Virus record (IMG/VR): IMGVR_UViG_3300047274_000223
DNA from: a virus
DNA length: 64,000 nucleotides
Direction: 5' to 3' (one strand)
The notes under the pieces were generated by a model. The model was not told the DNA's origin. It saw nothing but the letters and a program-made list of their open reading frames with translations, and searched no databases. Shown piece after piece: positions 31,034 through 40,853 of this stretch (the stretch's first letter is position 1; the number at the start of each line of letters is the position of its first letter). A program made the translations under genes and the position numbers.

Positions 31034-31468
31034 TTATACCTTTAATTCGTTTTCTGTGAGTATAATGAATTCCCATTGTCTATCATGACAAAATTCTCTT
31101 GCTGCCTCCCATTTTGCTTGGTTGACTGCATAGGTCATAACCTCAGTGATGTAACGTTTCGTCTTACGCTGTTGTGGTTTAGGGCCATCAACTTGATATT
31201 TTGGTTTCACTTCAACTAAGAACTTTTTCACTTGGTTAGTTTTTGTTCTTACCTTAATGAAGAAGTCTGGAAAGTAACGATGACGTTTCCCATCGACGGG
31301 AGAGATGTATGGTATAATTAATTCTTCACTACCCCACTGCAAAACATTATCATTGGCATCACAGTATTTCATAAATTTTAGTTCCCAGGATGATCTAAAA
31401 ACTATATTATTTGGATCACCTAAATATTTTTTCGGTTTCTGTGGGGTATACTTACCTTTATAGGTCAT
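31034..31468 (-). CDS. gp4: Head completion nuclease (T4 gp4)
   Basis: YKGKY.P..PKKY.GDP..I.FRSSWE, WGSEE, RYFPDF, EVKP, NQAKW. Confidence 0.92.
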   Translation of the reverse strand: MTYKGKYTPQKPKKYLGDPNNIVFRSSWELKFMKYCDANDNVLQWGSEELIIPYISPVDGKRHRYFPDFFIKVRTKTNQVKKFLVEVKPKYQVDGPKPQQRKTKRYITEVMTYAVNQAKWEAAREFCHDRQWEFIILTENELKV

Positions 31469-31504: not shown

Positions 31505-32347
31505 ATGCCAGTTTCAGTAACAGGACTATCTGGTGCTAATAGCTATCAAGGATTCAGAAGCCTTGCTGGAAGAGAAACACCATCATTTAATAACCTATAT
31601 TGGATAAGGTTTAGAACTAAACCAAATGCATTACCCGCAGGTTATTTTAATGACTTTTTTGTGAATGGAAATACTTCTGGACCTGGACATGATAAGTCTA
31701 GATTACTGACATACTATGCTACTGATGTAACAATTCCTAGCAGACAGATTACAACTGGAGAGATTAAATCTGTTGGATCTATGTGGAGATATCCAACCTC
31801 AACCACCTTCAGTGAGATTAGTATTCAGTTCATTGTATCGAGAACATACAAGACTAGAACTTTGTTTGAGAGATGGATGAACTATGCTGCCAACGATGCT
31901 AGTCAGAGAGTATCATGGTACGATGATATCGTTACTTCTTATATCGATATCTTTAAGTATGAAAGGGGTGGACAGATTCCGTATGATGCGAATGCAATAA
32001 CTTCATTAGTAAATCCATCTCAATTTAATGTATCAACTACCAGTTGGAACAAGATGGTGGGATGCTGGACAATGAAGAATGCATTCCCATTTAACATTAG
32101 TAACATGCAACTTCAGGCTGGGCCCGCAAACTATATGACGATGGAAGTGTCCTTCTATTTTGAAAGGTATAGATTCTTTAAACCTACAAATGAAGGTAAG
32201 GAATACACTGCTGTCAATCTTGGTTCTGTGGGAACTAATGCTTCTCAGGCTGCACAAGCACAAGCAAATACTCAGCAACCTGGTCCAGGGGGACAGACTC
32301 AAACCATCACAGCCAACTCAAATGGAAACGTCACAACTGGTCCATAA
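31505..32347 (+). CDS. Tail-tube initiator-like protein (gp54/gp19 fold)
   Basis: DVTIPSRQI...YPTSTTFSEISIQF...FERWMN...NAFPFNISNMQL; position before gp26. Confidence 0.6.
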   Translation: MPVSVTGLSGANSYQGFRSLAGRETPSFNNLYWIRFRTKPNALPAGYFNDFFVNGNTSGPGHDKSRLLTYYATDVTIPSRQITTGEIKSVGSMWRYPTSTTFSEISIQFIVSRTYKTRTLFERWMNYAANDASQRVSWYDDIVTSYIDIFKYERGGQIPYDANAITSLVNPSQFNVSTTSWNKMVGCWTMKNAFPFNISNMQLQAGPANYMTMEVSFYFERYRFFKPTNEGKEYTAVNLGSVGTNASQAAQAQANTQQPGPGGQTQTITANSNGNVTTGP

Positions 32348-32391: not shown

Positions 32392-33105
32392 ATGCCTTTA
32401 CCTAAATTAGTGGTTCCTGAATATGAATTGGAATTACCATCTTCAAAAGAAACTGTCAAGTATCGTCCCTTTCTAGTTAAGGAAGAGAAACTTCTTCTTA
32501 CTGCCATGCAACTCGGTGAAGAGAAGGATATGATGAATGCAGTTAAAACTATTATTAAAAACTGTACCAATCTCAAGTCTAGAGTTGAAGAACTTTCGAC
32601 CTTTGATATTGAATATGTGTTCCTAAAGATTCGTTCGAAGTCTGTCGGTGAAGTTTCTAAGGTTATGGTAACTTGCCCTGATGATGGTGAGACTGAGGTT
32701 GAAGTTGAAATTGATCTGGAAGAAATTGAAGTTAAGTTCCCAGCAGATCATACCAACAAGATTGAATTGACCGATGATGTTGGTGTGATTATGAAGTATC
32801 CCTCTCTTGATACTTTCATTAAACTCAATTTTGCTGGTGAAGATATTACTGTAGAGAATATGTTTGACCTTTCTGTTCAATGTATGAGTCAGATTTATGA
32901 AGGTGAAGACATTCATGACTGCCGTACATATTCCAAGAAAGAACTGATGGACTTCTTGGAGAGTCTAAAGAGCGATCAGTTCCAGAAACTACAGAACTTC
33001 TTTATGACGATGCCAAAACTAGAGCATGATATTGAGATTGAGAATCCTAAGACCAAAGTGAAGTCTACTGTTAAATTAGAAGGATTAGGAAGTTTTTTCG
33101 CGTAG
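32392..33105 (+). CDS. gp26: Baseplate hub assembly protein (T4 gp26)
   Basis: MPLPKL..P.YELELPS...YRPFLVKEEK...FDIEYVFLKIRSKSVGE...LEGLGSFFA. Confidence 0.88.
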   Translation: MPLPKLVVPEYELELPSSKETVKYRPFLVKEEKLLLTAMQLGEEKDMMNAVKTIIKNCTNLKSRVEELSTFDIEYVFLKIRSKSVGEVSKVMVTCPDDGETEVEVEIDLEEIEVKFPADHTNKIELTDDVGVIMKYPSLDTFIKLNFAGEDITVENMFDLSVQCMSQIYEGEDIHDCRTYSKKELMDFLESLKSDQFQKLQNFFMTMPKLEHDIEIENPKTKVKSTVKLEGLGSFFA

Positions 33106-33308
33106 CCCTTCTACATTCGACACTAGAGAATCACCTGGAGACTAACTTTGCATTAATGCATTATCATAAGTGGTCTTATTCGGATTTAGAAAATATGGTG
33201 CCTTGGGAAAAACAATTTTATGTTGATAAACTTCTTGGACATCTTAAACAAGAGGAAGAGAGGTATAAGAAACAACAACAGACAACACAAGGTAGGACAA
33301 GTCTATAA
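33093..33308 (+). CDS. gp51: Baseplate hub assembly catalyst (gp51-like); -1 frame ORF, first ATG at 33156
   Basis: Hand-translated FFRVALLHSTLENHLETNFALMHYHKWSYSDLENMVPWEKQFYVDKLL...; not in ORF track; TAATG-coupled to next gene. Confidence 0.7.
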   Translation, partial: FFRVALLHSTLENHLETNFALMHYHKWSYSDLENMVPWEKQFYVDKLLGHLKQEEERYKKQQQTTQGRTSL

Positions 33309-36300
33309 TGTCTATTAGTGCCATTAAACCATATAAGTTTGTAAATCCAAATATGATCACTGGTGGGTTGTCTGCCAGAGTGAAAAAGGATGGCGAGAAG
33401 GGTGGTGCTACAATCATTGCTGCTGGTAAGAAGATTACTGGTCCAAAAGAAGAGGGCCCAGCAGCAGTAAAGGCTGGACGTACCACCCTTTTAGCATTCA
33501 ATAGAATAGGTTTTACACTATATTCAATCGGCAAGGCACAAAGTTCTTGGGCAAAACTGGTTGTCGGTGAAGGCAAACTAATCAAAGAAAATACAGCATT
33601 TCGTAGAAGAAAGAAGCAATATCTAAGAGATCAAGAAGCAGAAGCAAAACAAGAATCTTCTCCTGGTTTAAAACCAATCAAGGAAGAAGGTAAGAAGGCT
33701 GTTGATAAGAAGGAAAAGAAAGAACAGTCTTGGTTAGAAAAATTATTTGCTCCCTTTAGGGGACTGATTGAATTTGCTCTGAGGATAGCAATCACTCAGG
33801 GAGTTTTGAGATGGGTTGCAGATCCAAAGAATTACGATAAGATACAGGTATTTGTTGATAACGCTGCAAAAGTATTCAACTTCCTGTTTAATATTGCATA
33901 CAAGTCTATTGACTTTTTCCTGACAGGTGTATCTAACGTTTTAGGTAACGGGGAAGCGCAGGGATTTGATAGATTCAAACAGGTGATGACTGGTTTAGGC
34001 CAGATCTTAATTGGTATTGCGGGATTTAAAGCACTAAGTTATCTCAATCCATTTAATCTGGTTGGGGATCTTTTAAAATTAATTGATTGGTTCTCTGGTA
34101 ATACTGGTGCTCAGGAGGTACTACCTCAGGGTGATATTTCAGATGGCAAACCAGATGCTCCTGGAGCAAAACCAAAACCAAGAGCAGCAACACAAAAGAT
34201 TGCCGAGAAGTATGGTGATGATGCTGCAAAGTATTATGATGATCTTATCAGCAGAGGTAAGTCTCCTGTACAAGCACTCCAAACAGTAAGAGGCAAGTTT
34301 AAACCAATTCCACCTAAACCAAAAGGTGCTTTAGCAAAGATTGGTGATAAGTTCGCTGACATGAAGAAAGGATTCATGGGAGGACTTGAATCTGGAAAGA
34401 AAGGATTGCTTGCTGGGTGGGAGAATGTAAAGAAGATTGGTGGTAGTATTAGTAAGAGCGTTAGAGATAAACTGGCAAGGTCTGCTGAGTGGGCTAAGAA
34501 AGGAGTTACAGATAAACTAAAACCAATTGCTAAGGGTGCTTACGACATCCTAGAGAAGAAAGGTATTGTTAAGAATGTCAAGAAACTTGGTGTCGTAGCA
34601 AAGGAAAGTATCCAAAAAGTTCCTGGATACAGCAAGGTAATGAAGAAGGTGTCCGAGGAAGGCGGACAGGCCATGCTGAAGAAGATAGGTGGGAAAGCAA
34701 TTCCAGTTATCGGTGGACTTGTAAATCTATACTTTGCTTATGATAGACTTAAGAGTGGTGATAAGTCTGGTGCTGCACTAGAAGCACTGTCTGCTATCTT
34801 AGATCTATCTGGATTGTTTGGATTTGCACCAGGACCAGCACTCTCGATGGCACTGGATGCGTATCTATTTGGTAGAGATTTCTTCCCTGATGTTGTCAAG
34901 AAAGAGAATGAATACCTTGATAAGATGATCAACGGAATTCTTGCTCCTATCAAGTCTATTCAGGACATGCTACCTAAGATTCCTATGCTTGCTGAAGGTG
35001 GCATTATCAAAAAACCAACTTTAGCAGTCTTGGGTGAAAGAGGTCCTGAAGCAGTTGTACCTTTGGATGGAAGTCGATCTTCCTCAGATCAACTTGCGGC
35101 AACAATAATATCATCTATCCAAGGATCTATGGATAGGATGGGCCCAGGAGGAGAGGTTGCTAAGCAACTTCTTGCTGGACAATTGGGTGGTATTAAGAAT
35201 TCTCTTGGTGTTGGTAATGTATTATCTGTTGGCGGCGGAGAATCTATTTCGAAAACAGTTTCTATTGCACAACAGAGATCTGGTAAGGATACTACTATAG
35301 ATCCAGCAGAAATTCTAGTTGGAACTAAAAATCCTTCCTTTGGTATTGGTCAGACTAGTAACACCATGGATAATCTTCGTGGAGCACTTGCAAATGTTCT
35401 TGGTGTCTTTGCAGCAATAACAACAAAGAACTTTGATGTTGGTGGTAGTTCGACTATTTCTGGACCTCCTGGCGAAAATGATTCTAATACTGGTGGAGAC
35501 GTTGATACTTCTGGAGTAGAGGCAGCATCTGGTTCTGTAGTAGATAAAGGTGTAGCAATTGCCAAAAAGTTCATGTCTAATCTTAGCATGACAAAAGAGG
35601 CCGCTGCTGCTATTGCGGGTAACTTTGCACATGAATCTGGTGGATTTATTCCTGGTATTCGTGAAGGTGGTCCCTTTGGTAGAAGTTCTAAACCTTGGCC
35701 AAAAGGTACTGTTAGAAGGGGATATGGATGGGCTCAATGGACTAACTCAGTTCCTGGTGATAGGTATGATAAGTTTATTGAAAGTTATGGCGGCGATTAT
35801 AATAAAATACCTACAAATGAGGATAATTTGAAATTTGCAGTCCAAGAGATGAGGACTACAAATAAACTACCAGATAGATTTAAGAAGATGACTGATACTG
35901 CGAAAGCAGCAGTATGGTTTAGAGCAAACTGGGAAAGAGCGGGTGTCCATCACGATGGTCCAAGAATTTCATATGCTAAGGGAATCTTGGCTAAGATGGC
36001 TCAAGGTGGAAGTATCAATTCACCAGAAAAGGACAGGAAGAAACCAGGAAGAGATACCGATGCTGGTGTTGGTAATAAAATTTATCAAAGAACTACCTCT
36101 CAATTAAAAGGAGAAGCAATCGGTGGTGTTGTTAAACTATATGCTAATGGTGGAAAATTTCAAAATGGAAAAATACCAGAATCTCAACTGACTAATATTG
36201 GACGAGGCCATAAGGTTAGATCTGGTGAAGTTGCCGATTCTGTTAAGTCTATGATCGACGCGGCAAAGAAAGACAAGGTTGATCTTGTTTCTGGAATAAC

Positions 36301-37285
36301 ATCATCATATAGAAGTTATGCTGATCAAGAAAGAGTTAAGAGGGAGTTACCGCATCTTGCTGCACAACCAGGAACATCAAAGCACGGTTGGGGAATTGCT
36401 TTAGATATTGGTGTTGCAAAGCAACAAGATTGGATGCACAAAAATAGTAAAAAATATGGATGGGTTAATCCTGCATGGGCAAAATCTTCTCCATATGAAC
36501 CATGGCACTTTGAAAAAACTGGAGTACCAACGGGATCCACAACTTCATCACCTTCTGGTAATGGAACAGAACCAACTGGTTCTGGTGATGATACTTCAAG
36601 TGGAGCAGATACTGAAGAAAAATCCAAAGAACAGATTCTTGCCGAAATGGCAGCTGCTATTGATAAAGTAAATAATATGCTTTATGGAACTCCGATTCCG
36701 AACTCATCGGAGAATGCACAACTACCAGATAAGGTATGGATCAACAAGAAGACGGGAGAAGTATCTCTAAAAGAACCTCCAGCAGATAAAAAATCCGAGT
36801 ATGAGGAGAAGAAGACTGCAGAACTGAGTGCAGAACAAAAGGAAAAGGCACAAAAGTTACTACCAAAAACTCCACCAAAAACAACTCCTTCTGGAACTAA
36901 ACCAACTCCAACACCAGGACAGCAAACACCACCAACACCAGGAATGCCACCAGGAGCATTAGTTGCTGGACAGAGACCAGATAAAGCACTTACTAGAGAA
37001 CAGTTCAGAGCAGTTCAACAAGCGAGAGCAGCAGCTTCTCAGATGGGTCTTACTGGAATGGATAAAGAGAGATTCATTGCTAAAGCAGCAATGAATGCTG
37101 GTTCTTCTGGAGCATCTCTTTCGCAAGCATCTCAGTCTGCTCAAGTAAGTCAGACTATTGAAGACTCGGCCGTAACCACTGTACCTGTACCAATAAATAC
37201 TGGTAGTAGTGTTACTATGGTTGGTGGACATACTCAGACTCAGGTGATCAGACCCCAATCTCAAATCACCCGTGGTTTTGGATAA
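33308..37285 (+). CDS. Tape-measure-like protein 1 with phage tail lysozyme and M15B peptidase domains
   Basis: Helical Ala/Gly/Lys-rich body; AIAGNFAHES...GWAQWT; SYRSYADQ...SKHGWGIALD...EPWH. Confidence 0.75.
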   Translation: MSISAIKPYKFVNPNMITGGLSARVKKDGEKGGATIIAAGKKITGPKEEGPAAVKAGRTTLLAFNRIGFTLYSIGKAQSSWAKLVVGEGKLIKENTAFRRRKKQYLRDQEAEAKQESSPGLKPIKEEGKKAVDKKEKKEQSWLEKLFAPFRGLIEFALRIAITQGVLRWVADPKNYDKIQVFVDNAAKVFNFLFNIAYKSIDFFLTGVSNVLGNGEAQGFDRFKQVMTGLGQILIGIAGFKALSYLNPFNLVGDLLKLIDWFSGNTGAQEVLPQGDISDGKPDAPGAKPKPRAATQKIAEKYGDDAAKYYDDLISRGKSPVQALQTVRGKFKPIPPKPKGALAKIGDKFADMKKGFMGGLESGKKGLLAGWENVKKIGGSISKSVRDKLARSAEWAKKGVTDKLKPIAKGAYDILEKKGIVKNVKKLGVVAKESIQKVPGYSKVMKKVSEEGGQAMLKKIGGKAIPVIGGLVNLYFAYDRLKSGDKSGAALEALSAILDLSGLFGFAPGPALSMALDAYLFGRDFFPDVVKKENEYLDKMINGILAPIKSIQDMLPKIPMLAEGGIIKKPTLAVLGERGPEAVVPLDGSRSSSDQLAATIISSIQGSMDRMGPGGEVAKQLLAGQLGGIKNSLGVGNVLSVGGGESISKTVSIAQQRSGKDTTIDPAEILVGTKNPSFGIGQTSNTMDNLRGALANVLGVFAAITTKNFDVGGSSTISGPPGENDSNTGGDVDTSGVEAASGSVVDKGVAIAKKFMSNLSMTKEAAAAIAGNFAHESGGFIPGIREGGPFGRSSKPWPKGTVRRGYGWAQWTNSVPGDRYDKFIESYGGDYNKIPTNEDNLKFAVQEMRTTNKLPDRFKKMTDTAKAAVWFRANWERAGVHHDGPRISYAKGILAKMAQGGSINSPEKDRKKPGRDTDAGVGNKIYQRTTSQLKGEAIGGVVKLYANGGKFQNGKIPESQLTNIGRGHKVRSGEVADSVKSMIDAAKKDKVDLVSGITSSYRSYADQERVKRELPHLAAQPGTSKHGWGIALDIGVAKQQDWMHKNSKKYGWVNPAWAKSSPYEPWHFEKTGVPTGSTTSSPSGNGTEPTGSGDDTSSGADTEEKSKEQILAEMAAAIDKVNNMLYGTPIPNSSENAQLPDKVWINKKTGEVSLKEPPADKKSEYEEKKTAELSAEQKEKAQKLLPKTPPKTTPSGTKPTPTPGQQTPPTPGMPPGALVAGQRPDKALTREQFRAVQQARAAASQMGLTGMDKERFIAKAAMNAGSSGASLSQASQSAQVSQTIEDSAVTTVPVPINTGSSVTMVGGHTQTQVIRPQSQITRGFG

Positions 37286-37349: not shown

Positions 37350-40300
37350 ATGGCAGTCACCGTACCAACTTCTAAACCAAAAACCATCTTCTATAAGATG
37401 GTCACCGTACCTAAGGTAAAGACTACACCGCAGAATGCTGCTACGGTGACATCTTATAAAGCCTTTACTACGGGTCTTAATAGATTAGGTGCTACATTAA
37501 ATTCTATGCTTGTGGTAAACAAGCAACTATACGAAAATCTTTCACAAAACCTAAAATTAAAGATTAAGCAAAACGAGGAAGAAAGGAAGGATTTAGACGA
37601 AGAGAAGGCAAAGAAAGGTAAAGGTGGAAAGTTAGATAAATTAGCATCTAACTTTATGTCAACTATGGTCCCAGTGTTGGGAGATTTCTTCGAATCTCTT
37701 ATGGGACTCTTTGGCACCATTATGAGGGCCATATTCACACAAGCAATATTACGATGGATAGCAAATCCAGCAAATCAGGAGAAGTTAACAGTAATATGGA
37801 ATGCTCTGGTTAATTTCTTTAAATTCCTGTGGAACTTCGTAAGTACAAATATCGCAAAAACCTTAAGTGGTCTTTCCGATATGCTCAACAGCAATTTGAG
37901 CTTCTGGGACAGACTTAAGGGTTTTGGAACATTCTTGAGTGGTTTTGGTGCATTACTGCTTGGATTTGTTTTCCTCAAAAAACCAAAATTACTCTTAGAT
38001 GGTGTTAAGTTTGTTCTTAAGACTATTTGGGATTCCGTAACTGGACTGATTAAAGTCCTTAAGGGTAGAAAAGGTAAAGGTAATCTTCCATCTTCGTCAG
38101 GAAAACCAGGAGCTCCTGCTGCTGGAAAACCAGGTGCTGCCCCCGCCTCCCCTGCAGGCAAACCTAGAGGACGTGCAGGAGCACTTCTAAAGGGTATTGC
38201 TGGTGTATCCATGATCGCTGCTCCCATCGTCGTGGGGGGGATGCTAGGCGGCGGAGAAAGTGAGTTCCAAAAGAGTGTTACTGGAGATACTTCTGGTGGA
38301 CAATCGGGCCCAACACCTGCTGCGCCAACTGATGATGCACCTAGACTGAAAGACGGTGGTATTGTAACCAGACCAACGAGAGCAGTTGTTGGTGAAAGAG
38401 GACCAGAGGCAAGAATTCCCTTAACTGGTCCTACCCCAGGTGATAATGCCAAGAGAATGGTATCCGCTGGTATTCAACCACTTCCTTCGGGAATGGGTGG
38501 CTCTGGTGGAGTAGATAGGAAGAAAGCGAAAAGTCTATCCGATCTATATCTAGCACCGTTCCAAGGTATTGGTGCAGGTATCCTTGCAAATATTTCTAAC
38601 GTTGTTGGAAGTATGCCAGGAGCACAACAAATTACACCAGTTATCGGTGATATTGTTGCTCCAATTGCTAATAGTTTTGGTGTTCCGCCATCTCTAGTCA
38701 AGAAACTCACTGGACAAAGTAAGTCAAAAGCAGGCGGAACCAAGAAAGACGAAAGAACATCTAAACTTGCATCCCAATTTGGTAAAGGAAGAGTATCAAA
38801 TGTAACTGGAACTAAATTTGTTCGAAAGGGTGATAATAGTGTTCTTGGTTTACTAACTGATTTGGTTGGCGCTGGCCAAGTTATAGTAAATAAACTTGGA
38901 GGAGAAAAGAAAACAGATACTCCAATACCAGGACCAGCAGGTACTGGTCCTGCAGGAACTAAGACTGAATCTTTAGATCCAACTTCAGCATCTGCTCAAG
39001 CAGCTGCTGCAGCGGGTGCTGGAAGTGTTGACTTGAAAGCCAAAGGTGCTACTAAAGCAATGGAGGCAGGTCAAAGTTCTGAAAATAGACAACAATTTAG
39101 TTCTAAGGCGGGAGATGCAAAGAGAAGGCATCTATCGTTGAAGAAAATTGATGGTAAGGAATATGAAGCTCTTTTAAATACGACAAATGGAGATTATGAG
39201 GTATTTGAAAAAGGATTTTTAGGAATAAAAGGCAAGCAAATTGACATTAAAGCGGATAAAAATAATAAAATCCAACAAGAAGCATTGAATCAAGTTAGAG
39301 CATATTATATTAATAATGATAAATCCCGAGGAGTTGCTCTAAATTACATCACGCAGCAAGATGTTGCTAATAAATTAGCACAAGATAAGAAAAATAATAA
39401 AAAAGCCGGTGGTGGATGGATTTCTGGTCCTATGTCTGGATATCCAGTTTCTTTAGATGGAGGTCAATCAACTTCATTTATTGGACATGGTACAGAATGG
39501 GTTGGTTTCAAAAAGGCAGCTGGTGGATTTAGTGATTCTAGTGCTTTTGTTATACCTTATGATACTCCAGCAACCAAGAACAATCATGGATTAACTAATT
39601 CTAGATTTAAACAAGCAAAATCTGGTGGATATGCTTTACCAACATTTTCTACTGGTGGAGAACTAGAGAAAGCAGAGAGACTTCAGGAAAAGTCTAGTGG
39701 AGATGGAAGACCATACTCTAAGTTTGCTGCTGGTGGTAAGGCTATCCTAGAAGGTGCCAAGAAAGTTGTAGGTATGGGCAAAGGTGAAGGTAATATGTGT
39801 GCATATACTACTAGAGCAGCACTGAAAGCAGCCGGTCATTCGGCAGCAGAAAAGAGAACATCCAAAGGTGACTTAGACTCTAAAGGAACAGCATACAATG
39901 GAAGAAATTATGCTGCATCTTTTGCTGGTAGTGATATGGGATCTGTTATTAAAAGTGCTGGTTCTCTAGAAGCAGGTGATATTGTTCTATGGAAAGGTGG
40001 CGGTGGATACGGTCCTGGTGAAATTACTCACGTTGGTATTAAAGGAGAAGGTAGCGATCTCTGGCACCATGGTAGATCTGCTGGATGGAGAAAAGCATCC
40101 ATGTACACTAACTATGGTGGTCAGCAATTTGCTGCAGGTATCAGATTAGATGGTAAAGCGGGAGAAACAGTTGGTTCTGGAGATACTACAACTGGTGGAG
40201 ACACTACAACTGGTGGAGACACTGAGGCAAAGACAGCGGCAGACATTGCTAAGTCTATGGCGGAAGCAATTGATAAACTCAATGTGCAGTTAGGTCTTAC

Positions 40301-40853
40301 TCCAGCACCTTCATTGCAGGCTCCACCAACTGAAGTCTATGTGAACAGTAAAACTGGAGAGGTCATGGTGAATGATCCATCCAAGACTGCTGGTGCCAAA
40401 CCCGATGAATGGGTCAAGAAGAAAGTTTCAGAACTGAAGCCAGAACAGAAGCAACAATTAGATAAGATCTTAACTAAGAATTCTGTCAATGCTGCTGGAA
40501 ATCAAGCAGGTGCTGAACTCAATAAGATTGGTGCTGGAACTGCAGCTGCTGGATTTGGAGCAGCTGCCTCTGGTGTGAATCTTGCTCCTGCGCCAAAAGG
40601 TACTGATGTCACAAGTGCCACAACTGCAGTCAATGCAGAGAAAGATAAGTTGAAGCAGACATCTAAAGCAGCTGCTGCAGTTGCAGCAGGATCTGTTGCA
40701 ACTACTGGAGCATCCACACAAAAAGTTGTGGCTCCAGCAACAAATGCTCCACCTGCACCGATTATCTTACCTGGACCACCTAGAAGCCTAGATATAGCAG
40801 CATTAAATCCAAGAACATCTATTGTCGCATACCAAATTGCAGGAGTTTATTGA
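37350..40853 (+). CDS. Tape-measure-like protein 2 with NlpC/P60-CHAP-like domain
   Basis: Paralogous motifs to protein 1; MCAYTTRAAL...AGDIVLW...THVGI. Confidence 0.7.
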   Translation: MAVTVPTSKPKTIFYKMVTVPKVKTTPQNAATVTSYKAFTTGLNRLGATLNSMLVVNKQLYENLSQNLKLKIKQNEEERKDLDEEKAKKGKGGKLDKLASNFMSTMVPVLGDFFESLMGLFGTIMRAIFTQAILRWIANPANQEKLTVIWNALVNFFKFLWNFVSTNIAKTLSGLSDMLNSNLSFWDRLKGFGTFLSGFGALLLGFVFLKKPKLLLDGVKFVLKTIWDSVTGLIKVLKGRKGKGNLPSSSGKPGAPAAGKPGAAPASPAGKPRGRAGALLKGIAGVSMIAAPIVVGGMLGGGESEFQKSVTGDTSGGQSGPTPAAPTDDAPRLKDGGIVTRPTRAVVGERGPEARIPLTGPTPGDNAKRMVSAGIQPLPSGMGGSGGVDRKKAKSLSDLYLAPFQGIGAGILANISNVVGSMPGAQQITPVIGDIVAPIANSFGVPPSLVKKLTGQSKSKAGGTKKDERTSKLASQFGKGRVSNVTGTKFVRKGDNSVLGLLTDLVGAGQVIVNKLGGEKKTDTPIPGPAGTGPAGTKTESLDPTSASAQAAAAAGAGSVDLKAKGATKAMEAGQSSENRQQFSSKAGDAKRRHLSLKKIDGKEYEALLNTTNGDYEVFEKGFLGIKGKQIDIKADKNNKIQQEALNQVRAYYINNDKSRGVALNYITQQDVANKLAQDKKNNKKAGGGWISGPMSGYPVSLDGGQSTSFIGHGTEWVGFKKAAGGFSDSSAFVIPYDTPATKNNHGLTNSRFKQAKSGGYALPTFSTGGELEKAERLQEKSSGDGRPYSKFAAGGKAILEGAKKVVGMGKGEGNMCAYTTRAALKAAGHSAAEKRTSKGDLDSKGTAYNGRNYAASFAGSDMGSVIKSAGSLEAGDIVLWKGGGGYGPGEITHVGIKGEGSDLWHHGRSAGWRKASMYTNYGGQQFAAGIRLDGKAGETVGSGDTTTGGDTTTGGDTEAKTAADIAKSMAEAIDKLNVQLGLTPAPSLQAPPTEVYVNSKTGEVMVNDPSKTAGAKPDEWVKKKVSELKPEQKQQLDKILTKNSVNAAGNQAGAELNKIGAGTAAAGFGAAASGVNLAPAPKGTDVTSATTAVNAEKDKLKQTSKAAAAVAAGSVATTGASTQKVVAPATNAPPAPIILPGPPRSLDIAALNPRTSIVAYQIAGVY
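40179..40223 (+). repeat. 18-nt tandem repeat (2.5 copies) encoding GDTTTG linker
   Basis: ggagatactacaactggt ggagacactacaactggt ggagacact. Confidence 0.85.

Follow-up and report, generated by a model that had tools for sequence, protein, structure and literature searches.

The sequence considered here is IMG/VR virus record IMGVR_UViG_3300047274_000223, from which a stretch of 64,000 nucleotides (nt), hereafter called the window, was analyzed. The source phage is a T4-like cyanophage of the Kyanoviridae; among cultured phages it is closest to Synechococcus phage S-CREM1, with 81% nucleotide identity across the query. A gp26-type gene is located at positions 32392..33105 of the plus strand, and its 3' end carries a candidate signal for a programmed -1 ribosomal frameshift, through which a short and a long form of a tail assembly chaperone would be made from one gene. 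The product of normal reading, the short chaperone form (TAC-N), has 237 amino acids (aa) with the C-terminal end ...LEGLGSFFA. This product matches the Pfam family PF12322 (T4_baseplate) over residues 9-237 with an E value of 1.2e-69 and the family phrog_150 ('baseplate hub') with an E value of 2e-77.

The gene ends with the codons AGT TTT TTC GCG TAG, in which the slippery heptamer T_TTT_TTC occupies positions 33093..33099 (plus strand) in the X_XXY_YYZ phase, and the zero-frame stop TAG (33103..33105, plus strand) lies one codon past it. The -1 frame opens at position 33075, following a TAA, and is closed by another TAA at 33306-33308. Its segment at 33099..33308 (plus strand) encodes a C-terminal extension of 69 aa, RVALLHSTLENHLETNFALMHYHKW..., which represents a gp51-like part without a conserved start. 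The codons ATG, GTG and TTG are all absent from this frame ahead of the ATG at 33156, located 21 codons past the heptamer start, and the GGAG nearest to this ATG (33136-33139) lies 16 nt upstream of it. The stop of the extension overlaps the start of the next open reading frame (ORF) as TAATG (33306-33310). The predicted trans-frame product, or long chaperone form (TAC-NC), would span 32392..33308 on the plus strand and contain 305 aa; it was built in silico from 236 aa of frame 0, read through the TTC at 33097-33099, followed by 69 aa from position 33099. A preliminary description made from the letters alone had listed the in-phase heptamer, the -1 frame open to 33308, an AAGGA about 8 nt ahead of the slip site and the TAATG coupling to a tape-measure-like gene. 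All of these were read again in the sequence, the AAGGA being at 33080-33084 with a spacing of 8 nt; the startless stretch, given there as about 20 codons, counts 21, and the GGAG spacing, given as about 15 nt, counts 16. No separate long-form gene was found beside the gp26-type gene in the region read, a scan for a second PF12322 gene not having extended to the remainder of the window.

Frameshifting in T4-like phages is already known and was reported in 2022, according to the papers that cite that work. As cited in PMC10885494 and PMC12846349, Vladimirov, Gautam and Davidson (Virology 2022) identified the tail assembly chaperones of T4-like phages in the gp26/gp51 family. The citing passage of PMC12846349 credits the same work with poly-T -1 signals within their short-form genes, and the corresponding passage of PMC10885494 states that in some T4-like phages a short gene and a second, longer and fused gene take the place of frameshifting. 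The suggestion in the preliminary description that such a switch had not been described for T4-like phages was thus wrong. Both states, the frameshift type and the separate short and long genes, were found independently in the loci compared below. Hits to unrelated phages that share only the gene numbers gp26 and gp51 were set aside.

Slippery heptamer and -1 frame extension in related phages

The comparison comprised 80 loci from viral contigs, three annotated cyanophages and six distant named phages (Methylophilales phage Melnitz, S-CREM2, Stenotrophomonas phages DLP_6 and Mendera, Acidovorax phage ACP17 and the KVP40-like Vibrio phage Va3), 88 of the loci being distinct. The gp26 proteins of these loci show 26-85% identity to gp26 of the window. 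An in-phase heptamer was present at the gp26 end in all 88 distinct loci, as TTTTTTC in 86 and as TTTTTTT in two; alignment of the relatives, which the preliminary description had named as a check, thus found TTTTTTN conserved at the nucleotide level throughout. The codon ahead of the heptamer is AGT, TCT, GCT, GAT, AAT or GGT (Ser, Ala, Asp, Asn or Gly). It ends in T in 88/88 loci, compared with 40% third-position T elsewhere in the gene, and the first Phe codon is likewise TTT in every locus (88/88) against a background of 64%. The codon has been swapped repeatedly with the T retained, and this therefore indicates selection on the nucleotide sequence and not on the protein alone.

The distance between the heptamer and the zero-frame stop is also nearly constant. 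A single codon separates the two in 83 of the 88 loci, two codons in one locus and eight in another, and in three loci the stop follows the heptamer directly. In the locus with eight, a viral contig (L029:3199-3230), TCG replaces the TAG stop and gp26 gains seven codons, with no disruption of the heptamer or the -1 frame. By itself, the heptamer is unremarkable, since the two strands of the window together contain 17 copies of TTTTTTC versus approximately 25 expected from shuffled sequences; its significance comes from where it stands, the phase in which it is read and its retention in related phages.

The -1 frame proved to be conserved as protein from the slip site on, and hence also upstream of the annotated gp51 ATG, where the preliminary description had placed a second check. 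The extension taken from the two Phe codons (33093-33305) matches phrog_634 ('baseplate hub assembly catalyst') with an E value of 1.2e-22 over profile positions 56-119, and the small ORF begun at ATG 33156 matches the same family with an E value of only 6.3e-14. The match is stronger from 33093, and the 21 startless codons therefore belong to the homologous protein. The aligned extensions open with FFR, the onset of conservation falling exactly at the two Phe codons. Ahead of the methionine at position 22 of the window extension (Met22), the residues F1, F2, R3, H8, L11, N18 and F19 are invariant or near-invariant. The majority fraction of the alignment averages 0.70 over columns 1-21 and 0.73 over columns 22-50.

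Comparison with gp26 and gp51 of T4-type phages

In phage T4, gp26 (208 aa) and gp51 (249 aa) both belong to PF12322. The PF12322 domain of gp51 is complete (residues 1-201, E value 3.9e-52) and is followed by a tail, and gp51 residues 147-246, which cover the tail and the domain end, match positions 2-103 of phrog_634. A profile constructed from 80 in-silico fusions aligned T4 gp51 residues 63-244 in one stretch over the junction, and T4 gp26 aligned to the short part of the same profile, stopping at the junction (...GLKEFFELL). When the in-silico fusion was compared with T4 gp51 by pairwise BLASTP, the E value of 0.047 was not significant, the relation being seen by profiles only. Since the fusion profile is collinear with gp51 through the junction, T4 gp51 is the equivalent, from a single ORF, of the trans-frame product predicted here. 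Judged from these alignments, T4 gp51 is a gp26 paralogue with an added C-terminal tail and is equivalent to the whole fusion, so that gp26 of the window is the counterpart of T4 gp26, and the predicted fusion that of T4 gp51 with its C-terminal tail. The preliminary description had given the name gp51 to the small -1 frame ORF. This ORF does represent a gp51-like tail, but it matches only approximately the last 50 residues of T4 gp51, the window extension aligning with residues ~200-244.

The short and long forms of T4 are encoded by separate, divergently transcribed genes, whereas one gene is predicted to serve for both in the window. In the Phe-Phe codons, T4 gp26 has TTC TTT and no heptamer, in contrast to the TTT TTC within the heptamer of the window. 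The heptamer is missing from gp26 of all seven two-gene phages compared, namely T4 (gene 26, minus strand, L084:3803-3840), RB69, Bp7, Ac42, avDM1, GAP161 and Makalu003 (L091-L096 for the phages other than T4). Phages T4, RB69 and Bp7 retain Phe-Phe as TTC TTT with a preceding codon ending in G or A; Ac42, avDM1, GAP161 and Makalu003 have lost Phe-Phe altogether. Synonymous codons that break the heptamer, named in the preliminary description as evidence that would speak against a frameshift, were consequently found in two-gene phages only and in none of the frameshift-type loci (0/88). The heptamer is broken only where a separate long-form gene exists and a frameshift is not needed, which strengthens the case for frameshifting elsewhere; the T4-type phages, having broken the heptamer after gaining a separate long-form gene, would constitute a clean natural control for the signal.

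A separate long-form gene was found in approximately 1,380 phage records, mainly Straboviridae of enterobacteria, Acinetobacter and Aeromonas. The record of phage Berthold names its long-form gene 'tape measure protein assembly chaperone'. The frameshift form was present in every non-T4-type lineage sampled (Kyanoviridae, KVP40-like vibriophages, Stenotrophomonas and Acidovorax phages); this suggests that it is the ancestral form and that the two genes of T4 are derived from it.

Candidate stimulatory elements and alternative explanations

A GAAGGA at 33079..33084 (plus strand), located 8-10 nt ahead of the slip site within conserved Glu-Gly codons, is a weak Shine-Dalgarno-like sequence and a possible stimulator. 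In the relatives, the conserved Glu-Gly codons lie 10-14 nt ahead of the heptamer. At the Glu position, GAG is used in 56 of 79 loci (71%), compared with a GAG share of 33% in the rest of the gene (P ~4e-12 by a naive binomial estimate), and the following Gly codon is enriched in GGA and GGG; the joint codon choice yields a Shine-Dalgarno-like GAGG approximately 10 nt upstream of the heptamer. On the downstream side, significant hairpins starting 5-10 nt from the heptamer were predicted in two viral contigs from certain cyanophage clades, L027:3215-3275 (11-bp stem) and L067:3215-3275 (GGTCC/GGACC stem), with z values of about -2.5. Downstream folding in S-CREM1, S-H38 and ACG-2014d was not significant, as in the window, and the idea of a universal stimulatory hairpin was dropped. 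Given hairpins in L027 and L067 and none in the clade of the window, any stimulatory structure appears to be clade-specific. The upstream GAGG or GAAGGA and the hairpins of particular clades may stimulate the frameshift.

Several points weigh against a programmed ribosomal frameshift. The naive probabilities for the conservation of the third-position T and of TTT (~1e-35) overstate the significance, because the loci are phylogenetically related. The upstream element of the window is only the weak GAAGGA. RNAalifold found no consensus pairs among 66 sequences of 85 nt from the heptamer, and the downstream folding of the window compared with shuffled sequence was not significant (z +0.6). In approximately half of the loci, codon 6 or 7 of the -1 frame is an ATG from which independent initiation is possible, and the run of six T could also permit slippage of RNA polymerase. 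On the other side stand the heptamers in 88/88 loci, the conservation of the startless -1 frame and the T4 control. On this comparative evidence, it is highly probable that the tail assembly chaperone gene of this T4-like cyanophage is expressed with a programmed -1 ribosomal frameshift, and the passage from gp26 into the gp51 part proposed in the preliminary description is supported. We infer the ribosomal nature of the slippage, its efficiency and the binding partners of the products.

The same long form could also arise by transcriptional slippage, in which RNA polymerase would add one U at the six-T run and the message would then be translated normally. In agreement with this explanation, the signal is a homopolymer run, lengthened by the conserved T ahead of TTT TTC, and the window has no downstream RNA structure. 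However, bacterial transcriptional slippage sites usually consist of eight or more A or T, and the run comprises six T in 86 of the 88 loci and seven in the other two. Moreover, the run always stands in the canonical X_XXY_YYZ phase, and the upstream GAGG enrichment and the clade-specific hairpins (L027, L067) are stimulators of the ribosome type. Transcriptional slippage is disfavoured because the run is short and the flanking features are ribosome-type, and we consider it improbable. The passage of PMC10885494 that takes the 2022 title to mean separate short and long genes is a further point against it.

A slightly smaller probability still is given to two independent genes, with the small ORF translated from ATG 33156, or by reinitiation after gp26, and no fusion formed. 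Database annotation agrees with this, as GenBank shows either a separate small coding sequence (CDS) or nothing: a joined CDS was found in none of the nine frameshift-type records inspected (L001, L002, L003, L085-L090). The extension ORF is called from the Met22-equivalent ATG in the records of S-CREM1 and Melnitz and from a later ATG in that of S-H38, and the records of ACG-2014d and ACP17 contain no annotated gene matching the -1 frame ORF. An ATG is indeed present at 33156 in the window, and the ATG at codon 6-7 in about half of the relatives would serve the same purpose. Nevertheless, the 21 codons ahead of 33156 are conserved like the rest of the extension. The position of Met22 is occupied by Met, Ile, Val, Ala or Leu in relatives, S-H38 and ACG-2014d having no start codon at the equivalent of 33156, and the first possible start codon of the -1 frame varies from codon 4 to codon 36 (86 loci). 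The nearest GGAG is 16 nt from ATG 33156, T4 has the fused form as one ORF, and two independent genes would leave the conservation of the heptamer and the invariant third-position T unexplained.

The idea of an artefact or decayed gene, that is, a true single in-frame gp51-like ORF with a miscounted or recently mutated T run, has almost no probability: homopolymer runs are prone to sequencing error, but the same frame arrangement recurs in 88 independent assemblies and cultured isolates, the work of different sequencing groups, this concordance excluding sequencing error, and the zero-frame stop is kept beside the heptamer in nearly all loci.

Chaperone-like fold, neighbouring genes and significance

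The AlphaFold2 model of gp26 has a mean predicted local distance difference test (pLDDT) score of 87. In a VIA-align comparison of this model with 48,161 PDB representative chains, the top three matches were the three solved tail assembly chaperones, all to model residues 1-95: 3FGX (Rbstp2171; Z 7.5, root-mean-square deviation (rmsd) 4.2, 85 aligned residues), 2OB9 (HK97 gp13; Z 7.1, rmsd 4.0, 84 aligned) and 3KLU (YqbN; Z 7.0, rmsd 4.1, 85 aligned). Z values of 7.0-7.5 are moderate; the rows below the top three have Z values of 5.2 and 4.8, the first clearly unrelated chain being at 4.8. The same three structures appear as tail assembly chaperones in Pell et al. 2013, as summarised in PMC9603447. 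A Foldseek search of PDB with the gp26 model gave no match at E <= 0.001 and only a weak 2OB9 row, and nothing relevant emerged when PDB sequences were searched with a profile. According to the model, the N-terminal domain of gp26 (residues 1-95) has a tail-assembly-chaperone-like fold, and the analogy with lambda G/GT drawn in the preliminary description therefore holds at the fold level. The AlphaFold2 model of the extension is helical, with a pLDDT of 71.

The gene order around the frameshift site is a tube-like gene (31505-32347, phrog_45), the chaperone gene and a tape-measure-like gene, as in pairs of the lambda G/GT type. The third gene (33308..37285, plus strand) encodes a protein of 1325 aa with tail-lysozyme and VanY/M15 domains (Pfam PF18013 and PF02557). 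It shows weak matches to several PHROG tape-measure families, has no PHROG family in common with T4 gp29, and is presumably the tape-measure protein. A second large tandem protein of 1167 aa is encoded at 37350-40853, and N-terminal matches to phrog_790, 1200, 2588 and 17500 are common to both. The equivalents in S-CREM2 (tail 418 nm) have 1565 and 1456 aa and are annotated as 'endolysin', yet they were detected in virions; the first tandem homologue in S-CREM1 (tail 165 nm) has 1016 aa. The tandem large proteins thus look like tape-measure proteins, possibly two per tail. Upstream of the tube-like gene, on the minus strand (31034-31468), a gp4-type head completion protein matches the Pfam domain Tn7_TnsA-like_N with an E value of 3e-25, which fits the 'head completion nuclease' label of its S-CREM2 homologue.

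Conservation of a -1 frameshift in tail assembly chaperone genes, with lambda gpG/gpGT as the example, was reportedly described by Levin et al. in 1993 and by Xu, Hendrix and Duda in 2004. Pairs of this type are characterized by a fixed ratio between the two products, and tail assembly requires both of them. As in lambda G/GT, the second ORF of the window lies in the -1 frame without its own start and overlaps the end of the first ORF, the pair stands directly ahead of the presumed tape-measure gene, the modelled N-domain has a chaperone-like fold, and no downstream structure is evident in the window; downstream structure is not needed for the lambda frameshift. Unlike the lambda pair, gp26 of the window has no detectable sequence similarity to it, its heptamer is U_UUU_UUC and not G_GGA_AAG, its zero-frame stop is just one codon from the heptamer, and the protein is larger than lambda G, with a second domain (residues ~96-237) after the chaperone-like domain. 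Another parallel is dnaX of E. coli, where a Shine-Dalgarno-like element about 10 nt upstream stimulates the frameshift. The combination of a slippery heptamer with such an element at this distance is shared with the phage loci (GAGG enriched in relatives). In dnaX, a strong downstream hairpin is needed as well, and the product is truncated, not extended; the GAAGGA of the window is a weak upstream element.

In the proposed mechanism, most ribosomes would read gp26 to the TAG at 33103 and release the 237-aa short form. A minority would move one base back on U_UUU_UUC (33093-33099), where both tRNA-Phe would re-pair, and would continue in the -1 frame to 33308, giving the 305-aa long form, in which the helical extension accounts for about 70 aa. 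If lambda G/GT is taken as the model, the N-terminal chaperone domain common to both forms would coat the tape-measure protein of the adjacent downstream gene, and the extension, carried by the less abundant long form, would recruit a component of the hub or the tube.

Four points may go beyond the 2022 paper: how widely the signal is conserved, the third-position T, the codon bias towards GAGG and the control provided by T4-type phages. It seems rather unlikely that this paper details only T4 and its close relatives; if so, the ancestral position of the frameshift form, the GAGG preference and the clade-wise hairpins would be additions as well. A practical consequence concerns annotation: the tail ORF is at present annotated from differing internal starts or omitted, and annotation pipelines could be corrected.

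For the biology of the group, the frameshift would bring T4-like phages under a rule general to long-tailed phages, by which both a short and a long tail assembly chaperone are encoded just ahead of the tape-measure gene, and the pair of products would explain the identity of T4 gp26 and gp51.

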